A DNA stretch of 64,000 nt from an uncultured Thermoplasmatales archaeon (GCA_964346655.1 CAYFVP010000126.1:7877-71876), one strand, 5' to 3'; positions 1 to 40,144 are shown, counted from the first letter of the stretch. Program-made: numbers and translations. Notes: generated by a model not told the origin, from the letters alone.

Positions 1-79
1 TGGGAGTGTAGAATATAATAAAAATCTACCGATAAAAAAAAATATTAATGTAAACCATCAAGGAAGTATCAGTTCCTCG

Positions 80-1384
80 ATGGCTTTAGGATTTGATAAT
101 ATGACTATCAAACCCCGAGTAATAGGTAATATCGAAAATGGTTATAAATGTTATTCACAAAAACAACTTTTAACACATCTTGAAGTATCAAGTTGGCTTA
201 ATACAGTTAGTAAATCATCTCAAAAATATTATATTCGTGCAATAGAACTTTTTTGTAATTGGTGTGGAAAAAACCCATCACAACTTATTCTTGATAGAGA
301 TAAAGAAGTCAAAAGTGATAACCCTATTGAACGGAATAATACCCGTGATATGATTATAGAGTTCCGTAAACAACTTGAAAAAATGGGATATGCACCAAAA
401 AGTATCAATGTTATGGATGGTGCAATAAGAAGTTTTTACAGTTGTAATCTTGGTAAAATGGGAATGATAAACATACGGAATTATGCAGATGGAAAAGTAT
501 CTCTTTCAAAAGATTTAATACCAACACTTGAAGAATTAAAAAAGATGCTTGATACGGTCGATATTGAAGAAAAATTCCGTATTATATTTATTGCTCAAAC
601 AGGAATGAGAGTATCTGATGCTGTTAAACTCAAATATGGTGATATAAAAAGGGAACTTGAACAAAATAATAATCCAATTGCTATACGATTTTTACCTGTT
701 AAAGATCGTGATGTTATCGGTGAACGAATAACATTCTTAGGTAGTGATGGTATAGATATACTTAAACAATACCTTAATTATCGTAAGAAACGTGGTGAAA
801 TTCTTATTGATAATAGTCCATTATTTGCAAGTAGAACACGTAAACGTGGAATATATCAACCGATTACAGAACGTAATTTTAATGAAACAGTTAGAAAAGC
901 AGGAAAACGAATAGGACTTGTAAATAAAGATATAAAGTATGGTAGAATAAGAGTTCATTGTCTTAGGAAATTTTTTATCACACAACTAACAAATCATGGA
1001 GTAGAAGATAAAATAATCAACTTTCTAACATGTCATAAAATAAGTGATGTGGATAGTGTTTATTGGAATAGAAGAATAGACTCTTTACGTGAAATCTATA
1101 ATGATAGACAACAATATCTTAATCCTATTAATGGTGATAAGAAACATTATAACCTTGAAGAAATAAAAGATATTCAAAATAAGATACAGGATATGGATAA
1201 CCAAATACCCAGTATTGACCAAATTAAAGAACTAATAATTGAAGTATTAAATAAAAAACTAGAGGAAATTAAACCTAAAATCGAAAGTATAATTGTTGAC
1301 AATGAAAAAGATATAATCAAATATAGCAAAATGGGTTATAGTTGTGTTCCTATTGGAAAAAACAAATGGCTAATGAAAAACTAA
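80..1384 (+). CDS. Tyrosine recombinase / phage-type integrase (XerC/D-like core with ~100 aa acidic coiled-coil C-terminal extension)
   Basis: 434 aa; core-binding-like N-terminus; catalytic-type residues in order R (GMRVSDAVKL), H-x-x-R (RVHCLRKFF), Y (DSVYWNRR); at window edge so att/tRNA target not visible. Confidence 0.8.
   Translation: MALGFDNMTIKPRVIGNIENGYKCYSQKQLLTHLEVSSWLNTVSKSSQKYYIRAIELFCNWCGKNPSQLILDRDKEVKSDNPIERNNTRDMIIEFRKQLEKMGYAPKSINVMDGAIRSFYSCNLGKMGMINIRNYADGKVSLSKDLIPTLEELKKMLDTVDIEEKFRIIFIAQTGMRVSDAVKLKYGDIKRELEQNNNPIAIRFLPVKDRDVIGERITFLGSDGIDILKQYLNYRKKRGEILIDNSPLFASRTRKRGIYQPITERNFNETVRKAGKRIGLVNKDIKYGRIRVHCLRKFFITQLTNHGVEDKIINFLTCHKISDVDSVYWNRRIDSLREIYNDRQQYLNPINGDKKHYNLEEIKDIQNKIQDMDNQIPSIDQIKELIIEVLNKKLEEIKPKIESIIVDNEKDIIKYSKMGYSCVPIGKNKWLMKN
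80..1384 (+). mobile_element. Integrase marker of a probable integrated element (cargo boundary not determinable from the window)
   Basis: integrase followed by convergent/divergent uncharacterised small genes (1444-3585) before the housekeeping metabolic operons begin at ~6 kb. Confidence 0.4.
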
Positions 1385-1443
1385 CTTTGAAATTCCTCAA
1401 GTTTAATTTTGACATCATTTCTAAAAAACTCTAAAAAAATAAT

Positions 1444-2265
1444 TCAAGTCGGAAACAAAAAAAATTCTTCTCCTATTTCGTCCTCCCAATTAAATTGAAG
1501 TAAATCATTTTTACATTTTGGACAAATATCGTTTTTAGCTTGTTTTTTATTAATCCATATAGCACATTCAATATTATTACATAGATAATCAGCTTCGGCT
1601 ATTTTATCTTCATGAAAACCCTTTTTATTAACTCTATCAATTTCACACATTGGTTTTGGCAAAGACCTCACACAGATGCGGTCGACATAATTTTCATTAT
1701 ATTCATCCAAAACTGTTAATAAAAACCTTATTATTAATTCATTTAATTCCTCTAAACTGCTGTAATTATAATGATACAACTGGTCTGTTCTTGGTAATAA
1801 TTCTAATAATTTACCTATTAAAACATCAGAAGCCCCTAATACAATTTTCCCATTTTTTTTTACTTCTTCTTCAAAAACTCCATAAATTAAGTTTTTTATT
1901 AATTGATAATTAACAAATTTTGGATTTTTATTTACCAATATATCAAGTAAATAATCAAGTTCAGAATGTGAGCCTTTCCCAGCCCCTTTTACTGAAAAAA
2001 TCCATATACCAGTATCCTGTGACTCAATAAAATATTGACATTTCAATGAATTATTGATGCGAGAATTGTTAGTTTTATTTAATTTTTTGGGAAAATGAAA
2101 ATCCTCTACAATAAATGTGCTACCAAATCCACTTTTCCTAATATATTTTTTAATATCTTTTCTCAATTGAAATTCATTTTTAGGATGTGATGAACCAAAA
2201 ACTACTATTTCTAACATTTGTTTATCGGAATCATTAAGTATGATTGACATGTTTATAGTGAACAT
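1444..2265 (-). CDS. Hypothetical protein: N-terminal Rossmannoid LOG/SLOG- or TIR-like domain (weak motif match) + C-terminal zinc ribbon
   Basis: 273 aa; N-term 'EIVVFGSSHP' and 'KGAGKGSHSELDYLL' resemble LOG/SLOG 'VFGGS' and 'PGGxGTxEE' motifs; C-term 'CNNIECAIW...CPKCKND' 4-Cys ribbon. Confidence 0.4.
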   Translation of the reverse strand: MFTINMSIILNDSDKQMLEIVVFGSSHPKNEFQLRKDIKKYIRKSGFGSTFIVEDFHFPKKLNKTNNSRINNSLKCQYFIESQDTGIWIFSVKGAGKGSHSELDYLLDILVNKNPKFVNYQLIKNLIYGVFEEEVKKNGKIVLGASDVLIGKLLELLPRTDQLYHYNYSSLEELNELIIRFLLTVLDEYNENYVDRICVRSLPKPMCEIDRVNKKGFHEDKIAEADYLCNNIECAIWINKKQAKNDICPKCKNDLLQFNWEDEIGEEFFLFPT

Positions 2266-2368
2266 ATAAAAGATACATTTAGATATTTAGGTTGAATTTA
2301 TTAAAACAGGTTGAAAATAACAAACCTTATAAAGGATAAAAACAATATATATATGTTACGGAGGATAA

Positions 2369-2920
2369 ATGCCAAAAAATCTCGATGAACAGGCTATGGT
2401 AGCTAAAGCATTTGCTACACTATCTGATATAACTTCAAGAATTATAGTAAATAAATTAGAGAATGACAATTTGTCTTTTACAGAATTGCAAAAATCAACC
2501 AGATTAGATAAAAATTCGTTATATTATAAAATAAAGAAATTAATTAAATCAGGAATTATTGTCAATTATTATCAGAAAAGAGAAGACACATCTGAATATT
2601 CTTTTTATAAAATAACTTCGTTTGGAAAAAAAATATTGGATCAACTTGATATTTCAGTTGTGAAAAAAAGACCTATTGTAACAACGGATAAAAAATCTGA
2701 ATTTTATAATTTTAAAGAAGATATAAATGAATTATATAGATTTCTTCCAGTTTCTTTTGACTCCTATATAAAAATGAATATTAAACGAGCTAGCATTTGC
2801 GATGAAATTGAAAATAAGAGAAAAATAAAATTATTAAAAGATATTAGATTTTTTGAAGATAATTGGTATGAGGTTAATAAATTCAAGACGGAATACAGAA
2901 AGAAAATGGAAACAATATGA
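2369..2920 (+). CDS. ArsR/winged-helix family transcriptional regulator
   Basis: 183 aa; N-terminal wHTH-like segment 'LSDITSRIIVNKLENDNLSFTELQKSTRLDKNSLYYKIKKLIKSGII'; preceded by TATA-like 'atatatata' and SD 'ggagga'. Confidence 0.6.
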   Translation: MPKNLDEQAMVAKAFATLSDITSRIIVNKLENDNLSFTELQKSTRLDKNSLYYKIKKLIKSGIIVNYYQKREDTSEYSFYKITSFGKKILDQLDISVVKKRPIVTTDKKSEFYNFKEDINELYRFLPVSFDSYIKMNIKRASICDEIENKRKIKLLKDIRFFEDNWYEVNKFKTEYRKKMETI

Positions 2921-3585
2921 AAATAGAAAATTTTGAATCAGACCTTTCTTCAATTTCATATGAGATATTTGAGTCAACTATCCCAGTAACATATATTGTT
3001 AATTATCTCGAAAAAAACAAAAATTTTGCTGGAAAACCCGAAATTAGTGTAGAAGAAAATATAAAAATAGTAAGATATAAAGATGCCATTATTACAATTA
3101 ATGAAGATTCTTTTGAAATACCTCTACTGCATTTATCTGAGTATAATATTTCAGTTGCCGTTGATAAAGCCTCATCTAAAGATGCAAAAATGATTTGTGA
3201 TACTATTCTTAGTCAAATTCCTAAACCAATTTATAATAAACTAAAAATTAAAGAATATTATAGAACTACAGTTCGTGTTAAAACTAATTTTAGAATATCA
3301 AATTTAATCAAAGATGATTACATAGATAAATTCAACGAGATAAAAAAAACCTTTCCAAAATTTGAAAAAACTGAAAGAGACTTACAAATACCTGGACTGC
3401 ATTTAAGAATTACACCTGTTATTAAAGGCGATTATGCCTCACGAGTAGTAAAAGGATTAGAACCAATGGTAAGCTATGCGTTAGATTTCCATTTTGCATC
3501 ATCAACTGACTATGAAAATAATATTTTAACAGTTACGGCAGACCTTGAAGATACTAAAATTAAACAAATCCTCCAACAAATATAA
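2917..3585 (+). CDS. Hypothetical protein (no recognisable motif), translationally coupled to upstream HTH gene
   Basis: 222 aa ORF; ATGA start/stop overlap with 2369-2920. Confidence 0.45.
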   Translation: MKIENFESDLSSISYEIFESTIPVTYIVNYLEKNKNFAGKPEISVEENIKIVRYKDAIITINEDSFEIPLLHLSEYNISVAVDKASSKDAKMICDTILSQIPKPIYNKLKIKEYYRTTVRVKTNFRISNLIKDDYIDKFNEIKKTFPKFEKTERDLQIPGLHLRITPVIKGDYASRVVKGLEPMVSYALDFHFASSTDYENNILTVTADLEDTKIKQILQQI

Positions 3586-3774
3586 GAAAAAATTTATTTT
3601 GAACTGCTGAACCTTGTAATTCCATTCCTTCTTTCCAACCGTATTTTTTAATATAAGTATAGAAGCTATAATACTAGCTCTGACATATTAAAATTGCCAT
3701 ACTCACATTAAATAGAAATAAAACATAGGCAAAATGTGATGTTTAACGTCCATTTAATTTATTAAAAATTTTTA

Positions 3775-5745
3775 TTAATTAAGTTCAACACTATTTATCT
3801 CACTTAGATCTGCAAGGCTGTTCATTTTTACCATTTTACTAGAAATTGTGTAAAGAGTATCTTCGATGTATAACGAACGAGAAATAAAAGAAGAAGAATC
3901 TCGCCAGTGCCACCAATATTCATCTTTTTGTTTGTCATCCTCACTAACATGTGTGATCCTATCTCTGTATTCGAAACCATTTAAATTTAACCTAATAACA
4001 AAAGCACCTTGGAAGGTAAACTCTCCATATATACTATCAGGAATGATATCGTATTGGTTTTTTATTTCTTCACTTATTTCATAGAGGCTCACAGGTATTA
4101 CAAGTAGTTCTTTTTCTTTATCAAACAAAAATGCCTTATGATCATGTAATGCTGGGCTATCTGTTCCTCTGTCACCAATTATTATTTTATCTACTTCTTT
4201 TGGGTTTTCAAAATTACTTACATCAAAAAGAGCAATCTTTATTCCCTGATACCAAGCAAAGTTCCCATAGCTTGATTCAACTGTTTCTTTTCCAATACCA
4301 ATAATATGATTCTCATCATATGGATGTAAATAATCTGAGTAACCTGGTATTTTCAGATAACCCATAATTTTTGGATTATAAGGATCTGACAAATCGATTG
4401 TAAAAAATGGATCGATTTTTTTAAAGGTAACAAGATAAGCCTTGTCGCCCATAAATCTGGAAGAGTAGATTTGTTCCCCTTCTGCAATACCTTCTATTGA
4501 AGATATGCGATCAAGGTTTTCGTCAAAAATAAAAATATTATTTTGAGATGGATTTTCATCATCCCAAACATAACCAATGGTTGTTGCTATTCTAAAAAAA
4601 TTGTTGTGTTCATCCATTGAGAACTGATTCAAAATGTGACCAGGAACCTCATTTTTATCTAAATAATTTATCTCTCCATTTTTAACTTGAATTTTATGAA
4701 TTGCTGTGGTTTCCTCAGGTGGTCTATATATCAATCCATCCGATTGAATTGTATCATAATTATAACTTGTATAAACAAGATAAATGTTGTTTTTTGACAT
4801 GTACATATTTTGTGATACACCAATCAAAAAACTTTTTTCATTAACTGTCAATCCATCAAGATTAATTGAAATCACATGCGTCATTGTATCAACAGCTTCA
4901 GGTGAATCAATATAATAGATTTGATCATATGGAATTTTACTTGTATCATTGTCAATTTTTATTTCAGGGATATTTAATGTGTAATTTCCATCATGATATC
5001 TAAAAATATAATATGAATATTCTGATGAAACAACATAGATGTAATTGCCAATCATTCTAGAGTCAAAGTATGTTCCATCGATTTCAATATTTTTTACAAG
5101 GTCTGGATTTTCTTTATCAGATGTATCATAAATTTTTATTGCTGAGGATGAAACCTCCCATGTAACCTTTTCAGTTACAACCTCTTCTGATATTACATCG
5201 GTTTCAATATACCCATTGTACAATATTGGATAATTATATGAACTTCCAAACACAATCAAATAATTATCATTAATAAAGAACTCATTAATGTATACATCAT
5301 TATCAATAATTATTTTAGAAAGAATTGTGGCATTTTTTGCAGGATTTGCTTTTAATATATACAGGGTTTGATCTGCTAAAACATATAGATATATCCCATC
5401 TGTTTTAACAATATCTGGTTCATCAACACCCTCGACTTGAACATTTGTTGTCGAATAATCTGTAGAACCATCATCTGAAGATTTGGAATTTGAACTATCA
5501 GACTCGGCCATAGGTAGAGCTATTCTGTTACCTGATAAGAATCCATATTGATAATTTCCTGTACCATAGGTTTCATAATTTGTTTTTAAAAAATTTGATA
5601 ATTCATCATATGATGAAAAGGTTTTAACTTGATATGAATATTCATCATTTAGATTATTTATTAATACATATGCTCCAAAAATAATTCCAATTACTAAAAT
5701 AGTTAATACAAAAAGACCCTTGAATTTAATATTATTTTTTCCCAT
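3775..5745 (-). CDS. Secreted/membrane-anchored protein with C-terminal beta-propeller (COG4880-like archaeal/Bacillus secreted propeller family)
   Basis: 656 aa; N-terminal signal anchor 'LFVLTILVIGIIFGAYVL'; long Tyr/Asp/Gly-rich propeller-like C-terminal region. Confidence 0.55.
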   Translation of the reverse strand: MGKNNIKFKGLFVLTILVIGIIFGAYVLINNLNDEYSYQVKTFSSYDELSNFLKTNYETYGTGNYQYGFLSGNRIALPMAESDSSNSKSSDDGSTDYSTTNVQVEGVDEPDIVKTDGIYLYVLADQTLYILKANPAKNATILSKIIIDNDVYINEFFINDNYLIVFGSSYNYPILYNGYIETDVISEEVVTEKVTWEVSSSAIKIYDTSDKENPDLVKNIEIDGTYFDSRMIGNYIYVVSSEYSYYIFRYHDGNYTLNIPEIKIDNDTSKIPYDQIYYIDSPEAVDTMTHVISINLDGLTVNEKSFLIGVSQNMYMSKNNIYLVYTSYNYDTIQSDGLIYRPPEETTAIHKIQVKNGEINYLDKNEVPGHILNQFSMDEHNNFFRIATTIGYVWDDENPSQNNIFIFDENLDRISSIEGIAEGEQIYSSRFMGDKAYLVTFKKIDPFFTIDLSDPYNPKIMGYLKIPGYSDYLHPYDENHIIGIGKETVESSYGNFAWYQGIKIALFDVSNFENPKEVDKIIIGDRGTDSPALHDHKAFLFDKEKELLVIPVSLYEISEEIKNQYDIIPDSIYGEFTFQGAFVIRLNLNGFEYRDRITHVSEDDKQKDEYWWHWRDSSSFISRSLYIEDTLYTISSKMVKMNSLADLSEINSVELN

Positions 5746-6062
5746 AATTACACCTTCGTTTTTTATTTTAGCTACTAGTTATTATATTTAAAGTTTAAAT
5801 AGTATATCAAAACGTAGGGGAAAAACCTTACAAATTTTTCTACTGACTTCATATTTTAGCAATATCTACAATAAAAAAATAAAAAATTATTTTCATGTTA
5901 AACATTCTAAATTACTCTTTATTTTTTATCATTTATATTTTAAATATGATTGTAAAACCTATTTTATTAGATTATTATAACTAAATATTTCTTTCTAATA
6001 ATCCAATATCTAAAAATAGATAGTAATTACTATAATCCTTTATAAATTGAAACAATGATGAT

Positions 6063-7688
6063 TCAAATAATGACTGGTTCCTCGAATTTTCCAAAGATCT
6101 CCTTAAGTACCATTGTTATTTCACCTACTGTTGAATAGGCTCTTACACAATCGATAATATAGGGCATCAGATTCTCATTTGTTTGTGCCATAGTACGAAG
6201 TTTTTCTAGGCTTTTCGAAACCTCTTTATTATTTCTAGTTTCCTTTACTTGATTGAGCATCTTTATTTGTTGCTTAACTAGAGAAGGATCATACTCATGA
6301 ATCTCAATGGTTCTATCTTCCTCTTCTACAGTATGATACTTGTTCACACCAACCTTTACTAATTCACCAGATTGAATCATTTTCTCGTAGAGATAGGCCT
6401 GCCTAGAAACTTCTCTTTGAATTTCTCCTTTAGAAATTGCAGACACTATACCTCCACGTTTTTCTATCTTATTCATACAATCCACAATTTTTTCTTCTAG
6501 TTGATCAGTTAATGCTTCAACATAGTATGATCCACCTAAAGGGTCAGCAGTATCACATAATCCCATTTCTTCTATTAAAATCTGCATAGTACGTAATGAA
6601 ATAATTGCAGCTTTTTCAGAGGGAATTGTATATGCTTCGTCATATGAACATAATGCCATTGTTTGTGTGCCACTAAGTGCAGAAATAAGTGCATAATAAG
6701 CACCGCGCACAATATTATTTTCTGGTTGCTCAATTGTAAGTCCCCCACCACCTCCACCAGCAATCATCTTCATCATCATTGCTTTAGGATCTGTAGCAGC
6801 AAATTCATTTTTCACTATCTTTGCCCAGAGTCTTCTTGCTGCTCTGAATTTGGCTATTTGTTCAAAAAAATTACCATGTATATCAAAATTAAAGGAGATT
6901 CGAGGTATGAAATCGTTTGCATCAATTCCACGGGCAAGTACATGCTGAATATAGGCTTTAGCAATAGAAAAGGCGTATGCAATCTCTTGAACAGGATTTG
7001 CACCAGACTCACGAATATGATACCCGCAGACGCTCACAGGATAATACTTAGGTATATTTCTTGCACAATACTCAATGGTGTCAGTTATCAATCTAAGCGA
7101 AGGCTCTACTGGGAAGATCCAAGTTCCTCGTCCGATATACTCTTTGAGTATATCGTTTTGGGCAGTGCCCCTTATTTTATCAGGGCTAAGACCCTGTTTT
7201 TCAGCAACAACAATATACATTGCCAATAGTATTGCTGCAGTTGAGTTTATAGTTAGAGAAGTACTTATTTTATCCAACGGTATACCCTTAAAAGCATACT
7301 CCATATCCTTTAAAGTATCAACAGCCATTCCAACCCTACCGACTTCTCCTTCAGCGAGTACATCATCAGAATCTAGTCCCATCTGGGTGGGTAGATCAAA
7401 TGCAACATTTAGACCTGTTTGTCCATGTTCTATTAAATATTTGAATCGCTTGTTGGTTTCTCTGGCTGTAGCAAAACCAGAATACTGTCGCATGGTCCAA
7501 GGTCGGGTGCGATACATATATGGATGAATGCCTCTTGTATATGGATATTTTCCAGGATCCTTAATGTCCTTTTCATAATCAAGGCCTTTGACATCCTCTG
7601 GTGAATAAACAGGTTTGACTATTATTCCTGACTCAAGAACTACTTCTTTTTCCTTTTGTTGGGTGTCTTTCATAATCTTGCCCCACAT
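6063..7688 (-). CDS. Methylmalonyl-CoA mutase family, large (catalytic, N-terminal TIM-barrel) subunit; substrate specificity (methylmalonyl/isobutyryl/ethylmalonyl-CoA) not resolvable
   Basis: 541 aa; 'YPYTRGIHPYMYRTRPWTMRQYSGFATARETNKRFKYLIEHGQTGLNVAFDLPTQ' matches MCM family N-terminus; true start probably the internal Met at ~7673. Confidence 0.9.
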   Translation of the reverse strand: MWGKIMKDTQQKEKEVVLESGIIVKPVYSPEDVKGLDYEKDIKDPGKYPYTRGIHPYMYRTRPWTMRQYSGFATARETNKRFKYLIEHGQTGLNVAFDLPTQMGLDSDDVLAEGEVGRVGMAVDTLKDMEYAFKGIPLDKISTSLTINSTAAILLAMYIVVAEKQGLSPDKIRGTAQNDILKEYIGRGTWIFPVEPSLRLITDTIEYCARNIPKYYPVSVCGYHIRESGANPVQEIAYAFSIAKAYIQHVLARGIDANDFIPRISFNFDIHGNFFEQIAKFRAARRLWAKIVKNEFAATDPKAMMMKMIAGGGGGGLTIEQPENNIVRGAYYALISALSGTQTMALCSYDEAYTIPSEKAAIISLRTMQILIEEMGLCDTADPLGGSYYVEALTDQLEEKIVDCMNKIEKRGGIVSAISKGEIQREVSRQAYLYEKMIQSGELVKVGVNKYHTVEEEDRTIEIHEYDPSLVKQQIKMLNQVKETRNNKEVSKSLEKLRTMAQTNENLMPYIIDCVRAYSTVGEITMVLKEIFGKFEEPVII

Positions 7689-8097
7689 TTATTTTAATAA
7701 AATCTATAATATCAGAAAACTTAGAGCCTGTTGGAAATACACCTTTTACACCTAAAGTCTGAAGGCCATCAATATCCCGTCTTGGGATATTGCCGCCTAC
7801 AATAATTAAAATATCGTTCATAGCTATTTCCTTCAAGTGTTTCATTAACTTCTCAGTTATTGGATAATGCGCACCAGAAAGAATACTTAATCCAATAACA
7901 TTAACATCCTCTTGAATAGCTGTTTCAATAATTTGTTCGATAGTCTGATGCAGACCTGTATAAATAACCTCCATACCTGCATCACGTAATAGCTGAGCAA
8001 TAATCTTTACACCACGATCATGCCCATCCAAACCAGGCTTTGCAATTAAAATCCTTATTTTTTTTTCTGGCAATGCAAGTCCTCCACATCTAATCAA
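7633..8097 (-). CDS. B12-binding small subunit of methylmalonyl-CoA mutase family
   Basis: 154 aa; 'KIRILIAKPGLDGHDRGVKIIAQLLRDAGMEVIYTG' classic cobalamin-binding DxHxxG motif region. Confidence 0.85.
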   Translation of the reverse strand: MIRCGGLALPEKKIRILIAKPGLDGHDRGVKIIAQLLRDAGMEVIYTGLHQTIEQIIETAIQEDVNVIGLSILSGAHYPITEKLMKHLKEIAMNDILIIVGGNIPRRDIDGLQTLGVKGVFPTGSKFSDIIDFIKINVGQDYERHPTKGKRSSS

Positions 8098-8837
8098 ATA
8101 CCAACGCTAATGCCACCATCAACAAATATTACTTGTCCAGTGATATAACTTGATTCCTCACTTGCCAAAAAGACATGAATGTTGGCAATCTCTTTAGGCT
8201 CTGCAAACCTACCAAGTGGAATTTTTTTCTTAATCATTTGTGCAATTTCAGGAGGCATCTTTGCTGTCATTGGTGTATTTGTAGCCCCGGGAGACACGCA
8301 ATTAACGGTAATATTATATCGAGCACCTTCCAGTGCCAACGTTTTAGTAAGACCTATTACACCCGCTTTAGAAGCAGAATAATTTGCCTGCCCAATATTT
8401 CCAAGTGCCCCAATTGATGCGGTGTTAATTATCCTTCCAGATTTTTGCTCTGACATTGGACCAAGTGCAGCTTGAGCACACAAAAATGTTCCTTTAAGAT
8501 TGATATTAATAACTTTGTCCCATTGCTCTTCAGTCATTTTTTTAGCAAAAGAATCTCTATTGACACCTGCATTGTTTACAAGGATATCAAGTCTACCAAA
8601 TTGCTTTAATATTTGCTTTATCATATCTTCTACCTCACGTTTCTTGCAAATATCAGCGATGCAAACCAAAGCCTCATAACCTTTTGCCTTTACCTTTTTA
8701 GCTACATTATTTGCATTATCTACATTGACATCATTGATTACTACTTTTGCACCTTCTTCTGAAAATCTTAAAACTGTTGCCTCACCTATTCCGCTTCCTC
8801 CCCCAGTTATCAAAGCAACCTTATTTTTTAATCTCAT
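8094..8837 (-). CDS. fabG: Short-chain dehydrogenase/reductase (3-oxoacyl-ACP/CoA reductase, FabG-like)
   Basis: 247 aa; 'ALITGGGSGIGEA' cofactor motif, 'NNAG', 'YSASKAG' catalytic motif. Confidence 0.85.
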   Translation of the reverse strand: MRLKNKVALITGGGSGIGEATVLRFSEEGAKVVINDVNVDNANNVAKKVKAKGYEALVCIADICKKREVEDMIKQILKQFGRLDILVNNAGVNRDSFAKKMTEEQWDKVININLKGTFLCAQAALGPMSEQKSGRIINTASIGALGNIGQANYSASKAGVIGLTKTLALEGARYNITVNCVSPGATNTPMTAKMPPEIAQMIKKKIPLGRFAEPKEIANIHVFLASEESSYITGQVIFVDGGISVGI

Positions 8838-9366: not shown

Positions 9367-10503
9367 TTATCTCATCTCCCTTCCAATTATGAGCTGTAAA
9401 ATCTCAGATGTCCCACCACCATACAATAAAAATCTAGCATCACGAAAGAAACGTTGCATAGGAAATTCTTCTGCTATTCCATAAGCTCCATATATTCGGG
9501 TCCCTTCGTCAACAACACTGTTTGCCATTTCAGAGGCAAACAATTTCGCCATAGATGCCTCTTTCATACATGACTTTTTTTGATCTATAAGCCACGCAGC
9601 ATAATAGACCAATAAACGTGCAGCTTCAAGCTCTGTTGCCATTTTCCCCAATTTCATTCTTATAGCCTGAAATTTTCCAATAGGTCGTCCAAACTGTTTA
9701 CGTTCCTGCGAATATTTTATACATGCGTCAAGTGCTCCTCGGGCAAGTCCGATACTTAATGCACCAGTCATAACCCTTATCTCTGCAAGAATCTCCTGGA
9801 GCTGCGGGTAACCTTCTCCATCTTTTCCCAACATATTGTTTAAAGGTATTTTACACTCCTCAAATGCAATCTCGGCTATTGATCCGCCTTGGACAGATAT
9901 CTTATCAATTTTTTTACCTATTGAAAAACCTGGAGTCCCTTTTTCTACCAAAAAGAAATTTACACCTTTTAAGCCTTTACTTTTATCAGTATAGGCAAGA
10001 ACCGTAAAAAAGTCGGCTACAGGAGCATTAGTGATCCATGTTTTAGTTCCATTTAAAATATAACTATCTTTTTCCTTTTTCGCGGCAGTTTGTATTGCTT
10101 CAAGGTCTGTTCCAGCACCAGGTTCTGTTAATGCAAAAGCTGCAATCTTATCACCTCTTATTGCAGGAATTAAAAGCTGTTGCTTGTGGTCTTTGTTTCC
10201 GAATCTGTAGATAAAATTTGTACCCATAAGCGATTGCATAGCAGTAAGCATGGCAAGACTCAACCATCCTCGAGCAAGTTCCTCACATAAAATACAAAAC
10301 ATTACTGTGTTTGTATCTGTACCACCATATTTGGCTGGATAGCGAAGACCAAAATAACCAAGTTCTCCTGCTCTTTTAAATAATGAAGATGGAAACTCAC
10401 CCTTTTTTTCAAGTTCATCTACAAATGGTATTACTTCTTTTTCTATAAAAGCCGCAACTGTTTTTCGAAATAATTCCTCCTCCCCAGTTAGCGAAAAATC
10501 CAT
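9367..10503 (-). CDS. Acyl-CoA dehydrogenase
   Basis: 378 aa; ACAD family layout throughout, 'ALTEPGAGTDL', C-terminal 'YGGGTSEI'. Confidence 0.9.
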   Translation of the reverse strand: MDFSLTGEEELFRKTVAAFIEKEVIPFVDELEKKGEFPSSLFKRAGELGYFGLRYPAKYGGTDTNTVMFCILCEELARGWLSLAMLTAMQSLMGTNFIYRFGNKDHKQQLLIPAIRGDKIAAFALTEPGAGTDLEAIQTAAKKEKDSYILNGTKTWITNAPVADFFTVLAYTDKSKGLKGVNFFLVEKGTPGFSIGKKIDKISVQGGSIAEIAFEECKIPLNNMLGKDGEGYPQLQEILAEIRVMTGALSIGLARGALDACIKYSQERKQFGRPIGKFQAIRMKLGKMATELEAARLLVYYAAWLIDQKKSCMKEASMAKLFASEMANSVVDEGTRIYGAYGIAEEFPMQRFFRDARFLLYGGGTSEILQLIIGREMR

Positions 10504-38503: not shown

Positions 38504-39277
38504 TTAATTAGGTTTTCCATTGCCTTGTCCTTTGCCTTTGTTTTTCAAATTATCAACTGATAAATGAGCGTTTATTTTTTTCTTAATATTTTCTTTTTTT
38601 ATTTCAGTAAAAATTTCAAATTTCCTTTCTTTATTCATCTGGTTTATAGTCTTACTAATTCTAATTTTTACCTCAGCAAGTGTAACATTTCCATTTAAAT
38701 AATCATTAACAAAAGAGTTGTTTACCTCTCCAATAATACCATATAATTTATATAACTGATTTCTGTTGAATTGTTTAATTTTGTTTCTTATTATTTTACT
38801 ATAGTTTATTAACTCTTGACTTACCATTTCTCTGATTCTTTCTTTAATTTCTCTTAATTTTTCGCCGGTTAATATTTCTTTAATTAATTCCCTAAATTGC
38901 GATGTTAAATTTTTTGCTTCACCCTTAAATTCAACAAATAATTGAACCGATTCATTAGAACTTGTATTTACTTCTTTAACATCTTCTAGTAAATTTTTCA
39001 TTTCAAAAAGTATCGATTCTAAAGTGCTTATGTTATATTCAAGACCCTTTAATACTTCAACAGCCATTTCTCCTTTTAATATGTTTTTAATTATTGCTTT
39101 TTGAAGTTGCAATAATCTTATTTCAGCTCCTAATGAATTATTCATTATTTCTATTTCTTGTTCTGTTTCATTATCTATATCTGGATTTTCATTTTCACCA
39201 GCTTCATCTGCATATGCTAATGATGAAATTGAAATAATTATCACCAGCATAATTATTAGATTTGATATTTTTTTCAT
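38504..39277 (-). CDS. Secreted coiled-coil protein
   Basis: 257 aa; signal peptide; heptad-rich; C-term 'KGKGQGNGKPN'. Confidence 0.4.
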   Translation of the reverse strand: MKKISNLIIMLVIIISISSLAYADEAGENENPDIDNETEQEIEIMNNSLGAEIRLLQLQKAIIKNILKGEMAVEVLKGLEYNISTLESILFEMKNLLEDVKEVNTSSNESVQLFVEFKGEAKNLTSQFRELIKEILTGEKLREIKERIREMVSQELINYSKIIRNKIKQFNRNQLYKLYGIIGEVNNSFVNDYLNGNVTLAEVKIRISKTINQMNKERKFEIFTEIKKENIKKKINAHLSVDNLKNKGKGQGNGKPN

Positions 39278-39382
39278 ATTATCAACACCTTTTCAATTTT
39301 TTGACCTTAGTAATCTATTCAGTGAAACAACTTATTAATTTTCACCGGAAAAGGCGGAACAAACCGGAACAAATACTAAAAA

Positions 39383-40144
39383 TTATAGTTTTTTAATTCT
39401 TATTAAATTGGACATACCAATTTGTTCTTTTTCAATTAATCCTCTGAGCTCTAAACCTCGAATATTTCTGGACACAGCAGCTTTTGGAATATTTAATTCC
39501 TTTTGGATTTCAGTCTGTGTTAAAGGGATATTTTTATCAATTAACAAATTCATAATTTCTTTTTGTCGATTGTTTAGACCCTTAAAACTGTTAATATTTG
39601 CTTTTGGTATCCTATCTTTTATTTTTTCTTTAATAATGAGCCAAACCAAAATAATGATTAAAACTATTATAGATATTAATAAAATAATAAATACTAAATC
39701 AAACTCCATTAATTGATTATCTGTTAATTTTTCTGTTTGATATTGAACTATTATAGAAAAAGATTCATTTTCACCAAATCCCTTAACCATTAAACTACCT
39801 TTTTCTTCTTCAATGCTAATAAAACCTGAAGATTTTATGTAATTTATTGATGATTCTTTTGGTAAAGTTAATTCATAAATAAATTCAGAAAAAACTCCTT
39901 CTTTTGTTATATTTAATAGCCAATAGCTTTGTTTTTTTGATGTATAAATTTCTGTATCTTTTATTAATAAATCTAGATGATTAGTAATACCGTCAATTGT
40001 TATAAAACCAGAAGAGTCTACATCTATTTTTATATCTGCATAATATTTTTCTGCTGATATTGAAGGTATACAAATTATTGTCGATAAAATTAATAACGAA
40101 TATAAGAAAAAGATTTTTTTTGAAATAATTGATAATCCCATCAA
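39383..40144 (-). CDS. Single-pass membrane transcriptional regulator: extracytoplasmic N-domain, TM, C-terminal winged HTH
   Basis: 253 aa; TM 'LVFIILLISIIVLIIILVWLII'; C-term 'LNNRQKEIMNLLIDKNIPLTQTEIQKELNIPKAAVSRNIRGLELRGLIEKE'. Confidence 0.55.
   Translation of the reverse strand: MMGLSIISKKIFFLYSLLILSTIICIPSISAEKYYADIKIDVDSSGFITIDGITNHLDLLIKDTEIYTSKKQSYWLLNITKEGVFSEFIYELTLPKESSINYIKSSGFISIEEEKGSLMVKGFGENESFSIIVQYQTEKLTDNQLMEFDLVFIILLISIIVLIIILVWLIIKEKIKDRIPKANINSFKGLNNRQKEIMNLLIDKNIPLTQTEIQKELNIPKAAVSRNIRGLELRGLIEKEQIGMSNLIRIKKL

Follow-up and report, generated by a model that had tools for sequence, protein, structure and literature searches.

The DNA analyzed here is a window of 64,000 nucleotides, a slice of an 88-kb contig that continues beyond the window edge. 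We confirmed the five open reading frames reported for its left end, at 80–1,384 (plus strand), 1,444–2,265 (minus), 2,369–2,920 (plus), 2,917–3,585 (plus) and 3,775–5,745 (minus). The initial annotation had read the layout of the entire block from 80 to 5,745 as typical of a small integrated element or defense islet. We used a leftward extension identical to the window (L023) to find the left flank, and we identified two att sites that bracket an integrative element of about 4.4 kb (∼620 nt ahead of the window start plus window positions 1–3,774). The host is a Thermoplasmatales-like archaeon, and the element resides in its chromosome. Between attL and attR we find the genes for a 55-aa protein, a tyrosine integrase, a 273-aa protein (gene A), a 183-aa winged-helix protein (gene B), and a 222-aa protein (gene C). 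A small, integrase-led element is thus present, but it does not span the block as one unit, as the att repeats leave the fifth gene, a β-propeller, outside. The element is of an ordinary kind; its sole cargo is a rare, portable, and uncharacterized cassette of three genes. We regard the presence, the limits, and the composite makeup of the element as shown; taken as a whole, with the integration events and the cassette function proposed below, we hold this explanation with moderate confidence.

The integrase gene (1–1,384, plus strand) occupies a frame that is open from the window edge (to window base 2). An ATG at position 80 yields the annotated protein of 434 aa, whereas the gene is called with 520 aa in the full contig, starting 258 nt upstream of that ATG, and the shorter length is therefore a lower bound. 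Most family members start at a methionine that corresponds to window position 101 (MTIKP). The assignment as a tyrosine integrase holds: the protein matches Pfam PF00589 (Phage_integrase; E 2e-13, 50.7 bits, cut-off 27.1) and a PHROG integrase (E 2e-22), and the catalytic residues Arg263, Lys294, His379, Arg382, His405, and Tyr414 (numbered for the 520-aa form; subtract 86 for the 434-aa reading frame) show little or no variation among 13 homologues. The archaeal family is large, with more than 180 homologues, and in the two loci inspected its members adjoin unrelated accessory genes. The integrase is not a XerA orthologue (NF040815; 72.8 bits compared with a cut-off of 220), nor is it an SSV-type enzyme with attP inside the gene, which is split on integration, since its 520-aa reading frame is intact and neither att site falls within it. 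The 55-aa ORF is a small, conserved, divergent partner of the integrase; it is RHH-like by pattern only and shares 82% sequence identity with an ORF at the same position in locus L018.

The left site, attL, maps to positions 9,559–9,588 of L023 (window −620 to −591, i.e. 591–620 nt left of the window) and reads AACGTCCGTTT-AATTTATT-AAATGGACGTT. Its partner attR (3,745–3,774, plus strand) reads AACGTCCATTT-AATTTATT-AAAAATTTTTA; the repeat reaches 3,778, across the propeller stop codon (3,775–3,777), at which the repeat identity ends. A direct repeat had been predicted to recur between 3.6 and 6.0 kb, where attR is indeed found. Among direct repeats in L001 the att pair ranks first (48 nt, 81% identity, spacing 4,366), and its score of 26.5 compares with 15.6 ± 1.5 for the null model and was matched in none of 200 simulations. 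The core occurs once in the 64-kb window (0.02 expected), and L023 contains two plus-strand copies of the site (0 expected). A rare GC-rich heptamer, AACGTCC, is present four times in 21.5 kb, every time at one of the two att sites (0.6 expected). The inner (right) arm of attL, when reverse-complemented, exactly equals the inner (left) arm of attR, and the reconstructed attP (AACGTCCATTT-AATTTATT-AAATGGACGTT) consequently has perfectly symmetric arms in an 11-8-11 layout. The reconstructed attB reads AACGTCCGTTT-AATTTATT-AAAAATTTTTA. We infer that the integrase, together with its small divergent partner, recombined the element-borne attP with a chromosomal attB. This attB would have occupied the short gap that separates two convergent surface/secreted-protein genes, in contact with the β-propeller stop codon, and recombination would have produced attL as B-O-P′ and attR as P-O-B′.

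Both flanks are chromosomal, and no tRNA is involved at the integration site. The acyl-CoA genes on the right begin at 6,063, in agreement with their annotated position after the block, but an enoyl-CoA hydratase gene is found on the left flank as well. The propeller gene (3,775–5,745, minus strand) encodes a secreted or membrane-anchored protein of 656 aa with an N-terminal membrane anchor, and its annotation as a COG4880-type propeller is correct (Beta_propel, PF09826; E 9.3e-161, profile positions 1–494 of 495). It is not cargo, however: the gene lies beyond attR, whose repeat covers its stop codon, and is therefore a host gene outside the element. The element genes are missing beside and downstream of its orthologue in another Thermoplasmatales metagenome-assembled genome (L002; 74% identity), but the L002 flank is not syntenic. 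The GC content of 0.265 is low but falls inside the range of ordinary genes in the same window (0.23–0.41), and composition is thus weak evidence that does not single out the element.

Comparison with other loci reveals that the element is a mosaic of an integration module and a self-contained 2.2-kb cassette. In DNA comparisons, the integration module has homology in L018 alone (window −520 to −324 and −70 to 1,387), and the cassette in L012 and L015 alone (about 1,462–3,640, with its end at about 3,637–3,640). A discrete segment of 2.2 kb is 86% identical between L012 and L015, whose flanks are unrelated. Overall, the three genes recur in five further metagenomic contexts that lack an integrase, as a 2.2-kb unit with sharp borders. 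The cassette is kept in L012–L017 while its neighbors differ, and these include IS transposases, a type IIG restriction-modification gene, DUF4062, and NOV_C. Where the cassette homology ends on the right, a small AbrB/MazE-like ORF survives in truncated form (3,560–3,640, minus strand). In L015 and L016 this position is occupied by an intact 55-aa ORF (…IPPRDIEQLGWKEGMELQG…; MazE_antitoxin, E 0.072), of which the window copy retains only GWKEGMELQGS…, behind an in-frame stop.

Gene A (1,444–2,265, minus strand) encodes a 273-aa protein with an N-terminal α/β domain, in which Gly24, Gly98, and Glu102 are invariant, and a C-terminal Cys4 zinc ribbon (Cys229, Cys234, Cys248, and Cys251). Only four close homologues were located in 5.8 billion proteins; a profile search added two members that are full-length but distant, as well as standalone N-domain proteins (about 146–199 aa). 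The initial annotation as a SLOG/TIR-like zinc-ribbon protein is right about the zinc ribbon, but the window protein has no significant match to SLOG or to deoxyribosyltransferase/TIR-type profiles. Its relatives show sub-threshold matches to Nuc_deoxyrib_tr (PF05014; 5 of 22 members, best E 0.0035), to TIR_2 and DUF4062 (one of 22 each), and to ThsB in PADLOC (one of 22, E 0.016). The best PDB profile match is the deoxyribosyltransferase 4hx9 (E 0.33), with the alignment falling on the G..EL.Y catalytic-Glu motif, and an AF2 model was unusable (pLDDT 41.6). These sequence matches tentatively suggest that the N-domain may be deoxyribosyltransferase/TIR-like. Gene A diverges from genes B and C across an intergenic region (2,266–2,368) that presumably carries promoter and operator and in which we detected no significant secondary structure; the divergent arrangement is kept in all six loci.

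Gene B (2,369–2,920, plus strand) codes for 183 aa, with a winged-helix DNA-binding domain at approximately residues 20–95 followed by an uncharacterized C-terminal part of ∼90 aa. It was described as an ArsR-type regulator coupled to a 222-aa gene. The winged helix and the coupling are confirmed, but the window copy is a generic winged-helix protein, with weak Pfam matches to HTH_24, PadR, HTH_20, and HTH_5 (ArsR/SmtB, PF01022; E 0.048, 14 bits compared with a cut-off of 22). Orthologues in L013 and L017 have HTH_5 on record, and L013 also HTH_20. PDB matches are to Lrp/AsnC, MarR, and PadR regulators, and the only PADLOC match is to the winged-helix part of Csa3 in Csa3/CARF proteins (E 3e-8). 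The stop codon of gene B overlaps the start codon of gene C in an ATGA (2,917–2,920), indicating translational coupling. Gene C (2,917–3,585, plus strand; 222 aa) has a TBP-like, pseudo-dimeric double-domain fold with two β-α-β4-α repeats, and it contains the conserved motif G160xHxRIxPxxxGxYAxxVxKGxxP183. TBP is the best match in three structural searches, with 7–12% identity in the structural alignments and TM-scores of only about 0.4. Gene C has no Pfam match to the TATA-binding protein family (PF00352), and its fold is common to many unrelated functions (including BamC, KA1, SirA, glycosylase N-domains, and Rep_trans).

Several observations could be accommodated by a locus devoid of any discrete mobile element, with a stranded or domesticated recombinase, 30-bp repeats that stem from local duplication of a terminator or regulatory motif lying between convergent genes, and five genes that are variable “dark matter” of the chromosome. 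The att repeat is imperfect, AT-rich, and located at gene 3′ ends, GC is not distinctive, the cassette occurs elsewhere without the integrase, and no empty attB site was recovered. Further points weigh against the element as proposed: 11-8-11 palindromes as such are frequent in DNA of this AT-richness, we recovered no circular junction, cluster variants and conserved synteny with relatives are absent, and we found no analogous att site near related integrases. In a sister assembly the right arm of attL is B′-like (AAATGTTTTTA), which a simple attL/attR model does not predict. We nevertheless consider this alternative highly unlikely, because the motif is confined, across both the 64 kb and the 21.5 kb, to the two positions on either side of integrase and cassette, the GC-rich heptamer clusters there, and the arm symmetry fits B-O-P′ and P-O-B′. 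In addition, the integrase has retained all catalytic residues and a conserved partner ORF, and the homology break-points coincide with the module borders.

With regard to the cassette, we slightly favor a conflict or addiction module over a split replication initiator, at low confidence. The product of gene B would autoregulate the divergent promoters, that of gene A may be a nucleotide- or NAD-directed effector of the N-glycosidase type acting through the invariant Glu102, and that of gene C could be its partner, as a sensor, inhibitor, or DNA binder. The N-domain motif, the weak Nuc_deoxyrib_tr/TIR matches, the TBP-like gene C, and the defense-type and IS neighbors are hints in this direction. 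The term defense islet used initially is unproven: the gene A and gene C proteins have no match among the PADLOC-DB 2.0 models, and support comes only from neighbors of the other copies, an association based on about six loci. An integrative plasmid, in which genes B and C represent a split and permuted rolling-circle initiator of the Rep-Arvir/Rep_trans type, appears unlikely to us. There, gene C would nick an origin recognized by gene B, with Tyr173 (in GxYAxxVxKG) as candidate nucleophile and Glu4, Glu113/Glu153, and Asp198/Glu200 as candidate acidic ligands, chosen from conservation only (the Rep-Arvir reference residues are Tyr191, Asp46, Asp142, and Glu214 of RepDE). Rep-Arvir combines a catalytic domain of TBP-like fold with a MarR-like winged helix, is unrecognizable by sequence, and was discovered through structural matches to giant-virus TBPs, an Inoviridae protein, and RepDE (4CWC) (PMC13107129). 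Gene C returns the same pattern of matches, it is translationally coupled to gene B, its invariant Tyr, Lys, and acidic residues occur in a plausible order, and an integrase plus a replication initiator in 4.4 kb would make a coherent minimal integrative plasmid. Of the Rep-Arvir hallmarks, however, the TBP-like fold is present, but profile similarity, a fused winged helix, and a conserved downstream hairpin are not. Gene C matches neither DUF7845 (PF25227) nor Rep_trans (PF02486) at E ≤ 10 and could not be assigned to the latter by profile similarity or by motif III (YxxK); hhalign returned nothing with pT181 RepC and a probability of 0.05% with PAV1 ORF528. The protein has 222 aa compared with ∼300 aa for DUF7845, and the winged helix is a separate upstream protein rather than fused to the catalytic domain, so that domain order is reversed and the likeness is a functional analogy only. 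We found no significant or conserved hairpin downstream of gene C (fold z-score 0.24) or in the A-B spacer, and the conserved 55 nt downstream of gene C, considered as a hairpin origin, correspond to a small ORF; in Rep-Arvir, the downstream hairpin is not conserved outside Halobacteria (PMC13107129). We found no relatives in plasmid and viral collections, and no contig that carries the cassette is known to be circular.

The structural matches to TBP could also be read as a transcription-takeover or regulatory module that redirects or silences host transcription, with gene C as a TBP mimic or decoy binding DNA or TFB, gene B as a winged-helix regulator, and gene A as a zinc-ribbon factor. Archaeal basal transcription factors also contain zinc-ribbon and winged-helix domains, the types found in genes A and B. 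We regard this possibility as the least probable of those considered, given the low identity and TM-scores of the TBP alignments, the missing Pfam TBP match, the many functions served by the fold, and the fact that gene A is unlike TFB or TFE throughout.

The favored conflict-module reading relates gene A to the nucleoside 2-deoxyribosyltransferase/TIR/DUF4062 group of Rossmannoid conflict effectors, with which it shares a predicted β-α-β arrangement and a D…G-x-x-x-E-L motif with an invariant Glu, and which its relatives match weakly (PF05014, TIR_2, DUF4062, and ThsB). It differs from them in that no curated threshold is reached, in its fusion to a C-terminal zinc ribbon, and in its pairing with winged-helix and TBP-fold proteins, a combination for which we found no PADLOC model and no example in full-text literature searches. 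Genes B and C resemble Rep-Arvir (DUF7845)/Rep_trans in the TBP-like double-domain fold, winged-helix function, and structural-match pattern (PMC13107129), and in their location on an integrase-encoding mobile element of archaea; they differ in lacking sequence or profile similarity and a conserved downstream hairpin, in the separate upstream winged helix, in the shorter protein, and in a tyrosine that is a candidate only. As for integration, the element shares with archaeal elements that have non-split, pNOB8-type-like integrases the full R-K-H-R-H-Y set, short direct repeats, an integrase left intact after integration, and small variable cargo. Unlike these, it targets the spacer of two convergent protein genes rather than a tRNA gene, its integrase ends in a conserved domain of ∼90 aa and may be extended by 86 aa at the N terminus, and it is very small (about 4.4 kb), with no recognizable replication gene. 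Finally, the att sites resemble Xer/dif and Cre/lox sites in their 11-8-11 architecture of inverted arms around an asymmetric, AT-rich spacer, and archaeal XerA is the best NCBIfam match of the integrase. In contrast to those systems, the enzyme is no XerA orthologue, the recombinase gene lies between the two sites, which are directly oriented with a spacing of 4.4 kb, and attR has a degenerate outer arm, as would be expected of an attB half-site.

The left edge of the window lies inside an integrated element of ∼4.4 kb, the left ∼620 nt of which were recovered from other assemblies of the same population. Look-up of the 520-aa integrase returned L023, part of an 88-kb contig (JABAOF010008259.1, assembly GCA_012974965.1) that is identical to the window across 11,384 nt, with L023 position 10180 corresponding to window position 1. 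L023 runs on past the left edge of the window, and this edge is therefore a slicing artefact and not a contig end. Exact look-up of the propeller protein identified a second sequence, L001 (contig JABAOC010003755.1), with 99.95% identity to the window. The two assemblies of this population (GCA_012974965.1 and GCA_012975005.1) share 99.9% identity across 13.4 kb. The window has an intact short-chain dehydrogenase gene (8094-8837, 247 aa), which in the sister assembly L024 appears as two calls of 176 and 56 aa, consistent with a 7-nt indel separating the two assemblies.

The initial annotation had proposed a small integrated element and predicted an att direct repeat. Within the window alone nothing convincing was found, because the left site lies outside it. 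In the extended sequence (an N-base run marking a scaffold gap at L023 1094-1125, between two left-flank Laminin_G genes, was masked for repeat statistics) the top direct repeat measures 48 nt, with 81% identity and a spacing of 4,366 nt. Its score of 26.5 compares with 15.6 ± 1.5 in Markov simulations and was matched or beaten in 0 of 200. The 22-nt core of the repeat occurs once in the 64-kb window (0.02 expected) and in two plus-strand copies in L023 (0 expected), and all four copies of the heptamer AACGTCC in L023 (0.6 expected) are located at attL or attR.

Base-level comparison resolves attL, some 600 nt left of the window (L023 9559-9588), into a left arm AACGTCCGTTT, a center AATTTATT and a right arm AAATGGACGTT, and attR, the predicted repeat, at window 3745-3774, into AACGTCCATTT, AATTTATT and AAAAATTTTTA. 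The left arm of attR is the exact reverse complement of the right arm of attL; 11-8-11 palindromes per se are frequent in such AT-rich DNA. Under an arm model in which attL is B-O-P' and attR is P-O-B', the reconstructed attP would have 11-nt arms perfectly symmetric about an 8-nt AT spacer, and the reconstructed attB would combine one good with one degenerate arm. The predicted junctions read …CATTACGATAAACGTCCGTTTAATTTATTAAAAATTTTTATTAATTAAGTTCAAC… for attB and …GTGATGTTTAACGTCCATTTAATTTATTAAATGGACGTTTAACGTCCCATTTG… for the attP circle. The right arm of attL differs between assemblies (AAATGGACGTT in L023 versus AAATGTTTTTA in L001 and L024); the sister-assembly form is B'-like, resembling the host-side arm of attR, which the arm model does not predict. 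A cluster look-up for an empty site or strain variants gave singletons only.

Repeat identity stops at the stop codon of the propeller gene (3775-3777). The target of the element is a non-tRNA site at the 3' end of a gene. A tRNA target was rejected, as the window, L001 and L023 contain no tRNA. The propeller ORF (3775-5745, minus strand) encodes a full-length Beta_propel protein (PF09826, 656 aa) with an N-terminal membrane anchor and lies outside the att sites, which enclose, in order, a 55-aa ORF, the integrase, and genes A, B and C (273, 183 and 222 aa, respectively). All five ORFs of the initial annotation were recovered with unchanged coordinates and its central idea is supported, but the propeller, which it had counted as cargo, must come out of the element. 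Directly left of attL we find a gene for a 191-aa membrane protein (L023 8924-9499, window -1256 to -681) whose metal-binding motifs (CxxC…CCPxC) are TRASH-like and whose tail is PGF-CTERM-like; this gene and the propeller gene are convergent across the reconstructed attB. The left flank, which further encodes two Laminin_G proteins, an enoyl-CoA hydratase, a peptidase C25, a cupin and a GyrI-like protein, is chromosomal, and the hydratase places acyl-CoA metabolism genes on both sides of the block. A propeller orthologue in another Thermoplasmatales MAG (74% identity) is followed by unrelated genes, with no element genes, no attB-like core downstream and no conserved synteny.

GC content is lower up to about 6 kb of the window. 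Per-gene values in the block (0.24-0.29) fall inside the range of 0.23-0.41 that ordinary genes cover farther into the window, and composition is therefore weak evidence; we did not take GC content as a sign of foreign origin, other window genes being equally low. Genes with a GC of 0.23-0.27 are also present at 37579-40144, 54494-55828 and 62387-63559, so that low GC is not specific to the element. Three of the proteins encoded there are without Pfam match; the others are a GNAT acetyltransferase, an NTP-transferase and a protein with a MarR-type wHTH at its C-terminus. These stretches might be further variable regions.

The tyrosine integrase of the initial annotation (ORF 80-1384) is confirmed by a Pfam match (Phage_integrase, E 2e-13), but the length of 434 aa given there is probably too short. 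The frame is open as far as the window edge, the gene call is 520 aa, and the five closest homologues are likewise open across the additional 86 residues and conserve them in part; the start of most family members, MTIKP, corresponds to a Met at window 101. Neither the 434-aa integrase nor the 541-aa mutase is on record by exact look-up, because the gene calls use other starts. The family is large (>180 members in archaeal MAGs), and no curated family model that we scanned identifies it as an equivalog; the top NCBIfam match of the integrase, archaeal XerA, is far under cut-off. A C-terminal domain following the catalytic tyrosine (…IV..E..II.YS..GY.C.P.G..KWLMK; residues ∼340-434 in the 434-aa ORF, window ∼1100-1384) is conserved across the whole family and is without Pfam annotation. 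The 55-aa ORF shares 82% identity with an ORF at the equivalent divergent position in L018, which carries an integrase 75% identical to ours. Its putative RHH character is a matter of sequence pattern only (hhalign E 0.068, not significant; no PDB match).

Comparison with related loci reveals a mosaic. Homology to L018 is confined to the 55-aa ORF and the integrase gene and ends at the integrase stop codon, and homology to L012 and L015, two loci carrying genes A, B and C, is restricted to window about 1462-3640. Adjoining the closest relative of our integrase, L018 has an MmeI-type IIG restriction-modification gene (3725-6598), and L019 (integrase 64% identical) has unknown genes and AbiEii next to housekeeping genes. 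A search for att-like sites of these two integrases returned a weak 17-mer resemblance in L018 only and no AACGTCC heptamers. In all recovered loci (L012-L017) A is divergent from B-C, none of the cassette copies adjoins an integrase, and the neighbors vary. They comprise a type IV pilus locus, IS transposases, DUF4062 and NOV_C and, beside a distant copy, an MmeI-type IIG restriction-modification gene (L017 6008-8707). L012 and L015 have a discrete 2.2-kb segment in common (86% identity) between unrelated flanks. In L015 (2287-2454) and L016 (822-989), C faces a small convergent AbrB/MazE-like ORF, and a truncated remnant of it (3560-3640) is located exactly at the end of cassette homology in the window. 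We conclude that this is a small archaeal integrative element with uncharacterised but clearly modular cargo.

B (2369-2920) overlaps C (2917-3585) by ATGA and is a generic wHTH protein. A and C have no match in Pfam, NCBIfam, PHROG or PADLOC; A has just four close homologues among 5.8 billion proteins, and C is a member of six clusters. The A model is unusable (pLDDT 41.6). Profile searching across 1.84 billion representatives yielded 20 relatives, mostly standalone N-domain proteins (P0135-P0150, 146-199 aa) that share the invariant G…G-x-x-x-E motif (Gly-24, Gly-98 and Glu-102 over 22 sequences), and a metagenome scan gave a single weak partial match (L020). Sub-threshold matches are to Nuc_deoxyrib_tr (five members), TIR_2 (one) and DUF4062 (one). 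The family profile has no significant match among PDB sequences, the best being a deoxyribosyltransferase (E 0.33) aligned on its catalytic-Glu motif, and hhalign found nothing between the family and a DUF4062 protein of L015. The A C-terminus has four invariant cysteines in a zinc-ribbon pattern. The C model is good (pLDDT 81.9, pTM 0.76) and consists of two β-α-β4-α repeats; Foldseek returns giant-virus TBPs from BFVD and a TBP as the top PDB match (E 6e-4, TM about 0.41-0.48).

It is possible, if rather unlikely, that A, B and C form an undescribed archaeal system, either a conflict/addiction module or rolling-circle initiators of a split, permuted Rep-Arvir/Rep_trans branch. As a conflict module, a deoxyribosyltransferase/TIR-like zinc-ribbon effector would be controlled by the wHTH protein and its TBP-fold partner; the defence label for the cargo is conjecture. 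By definition, Rep-Arvir initiators combine a TBP-fold catalytic domain with a wHTH domain, and the family was discovered through the same pattern of structural matches as seen for C (2026, PMC13107129). However, an initiator role is unsupported beyond this shared fold: C does not match Pfam DUF7845 or Rep_trans (the controls PAV1 ORF528, E 2.6e-55, and pT181 RepC were recognized), hhalign tests were negative, no conserved or significant hairpin was found, and plasmid and viral collections, viral contigs included, contain no relatives of C. We keep the initiator reading despite these sequence tests because the Rep-Arvir family is structurally defined.

Little is known about the mobile elements of uncultured Thermoplasmatota-like archaea. 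The present case offers a minimal, cleanly delimited element with a reconstructable 30-bp lox/dif-like attP/attB pair for a large integrase family, and a rare, portable three-gene cassette with a TBP-fold protein as cargo; integrase and att sites could be put to use as a compact tool for site-specific recombination. Should the cassette have neither a defence nor an initiator role, this would be an ordinary small integrated element; either role would add a new archaeal system. If C and B do represent a split relative of the Rep-Arvir initiators, the element would be the smallest integrase-plus-Rep archaeal integrative plasmid.
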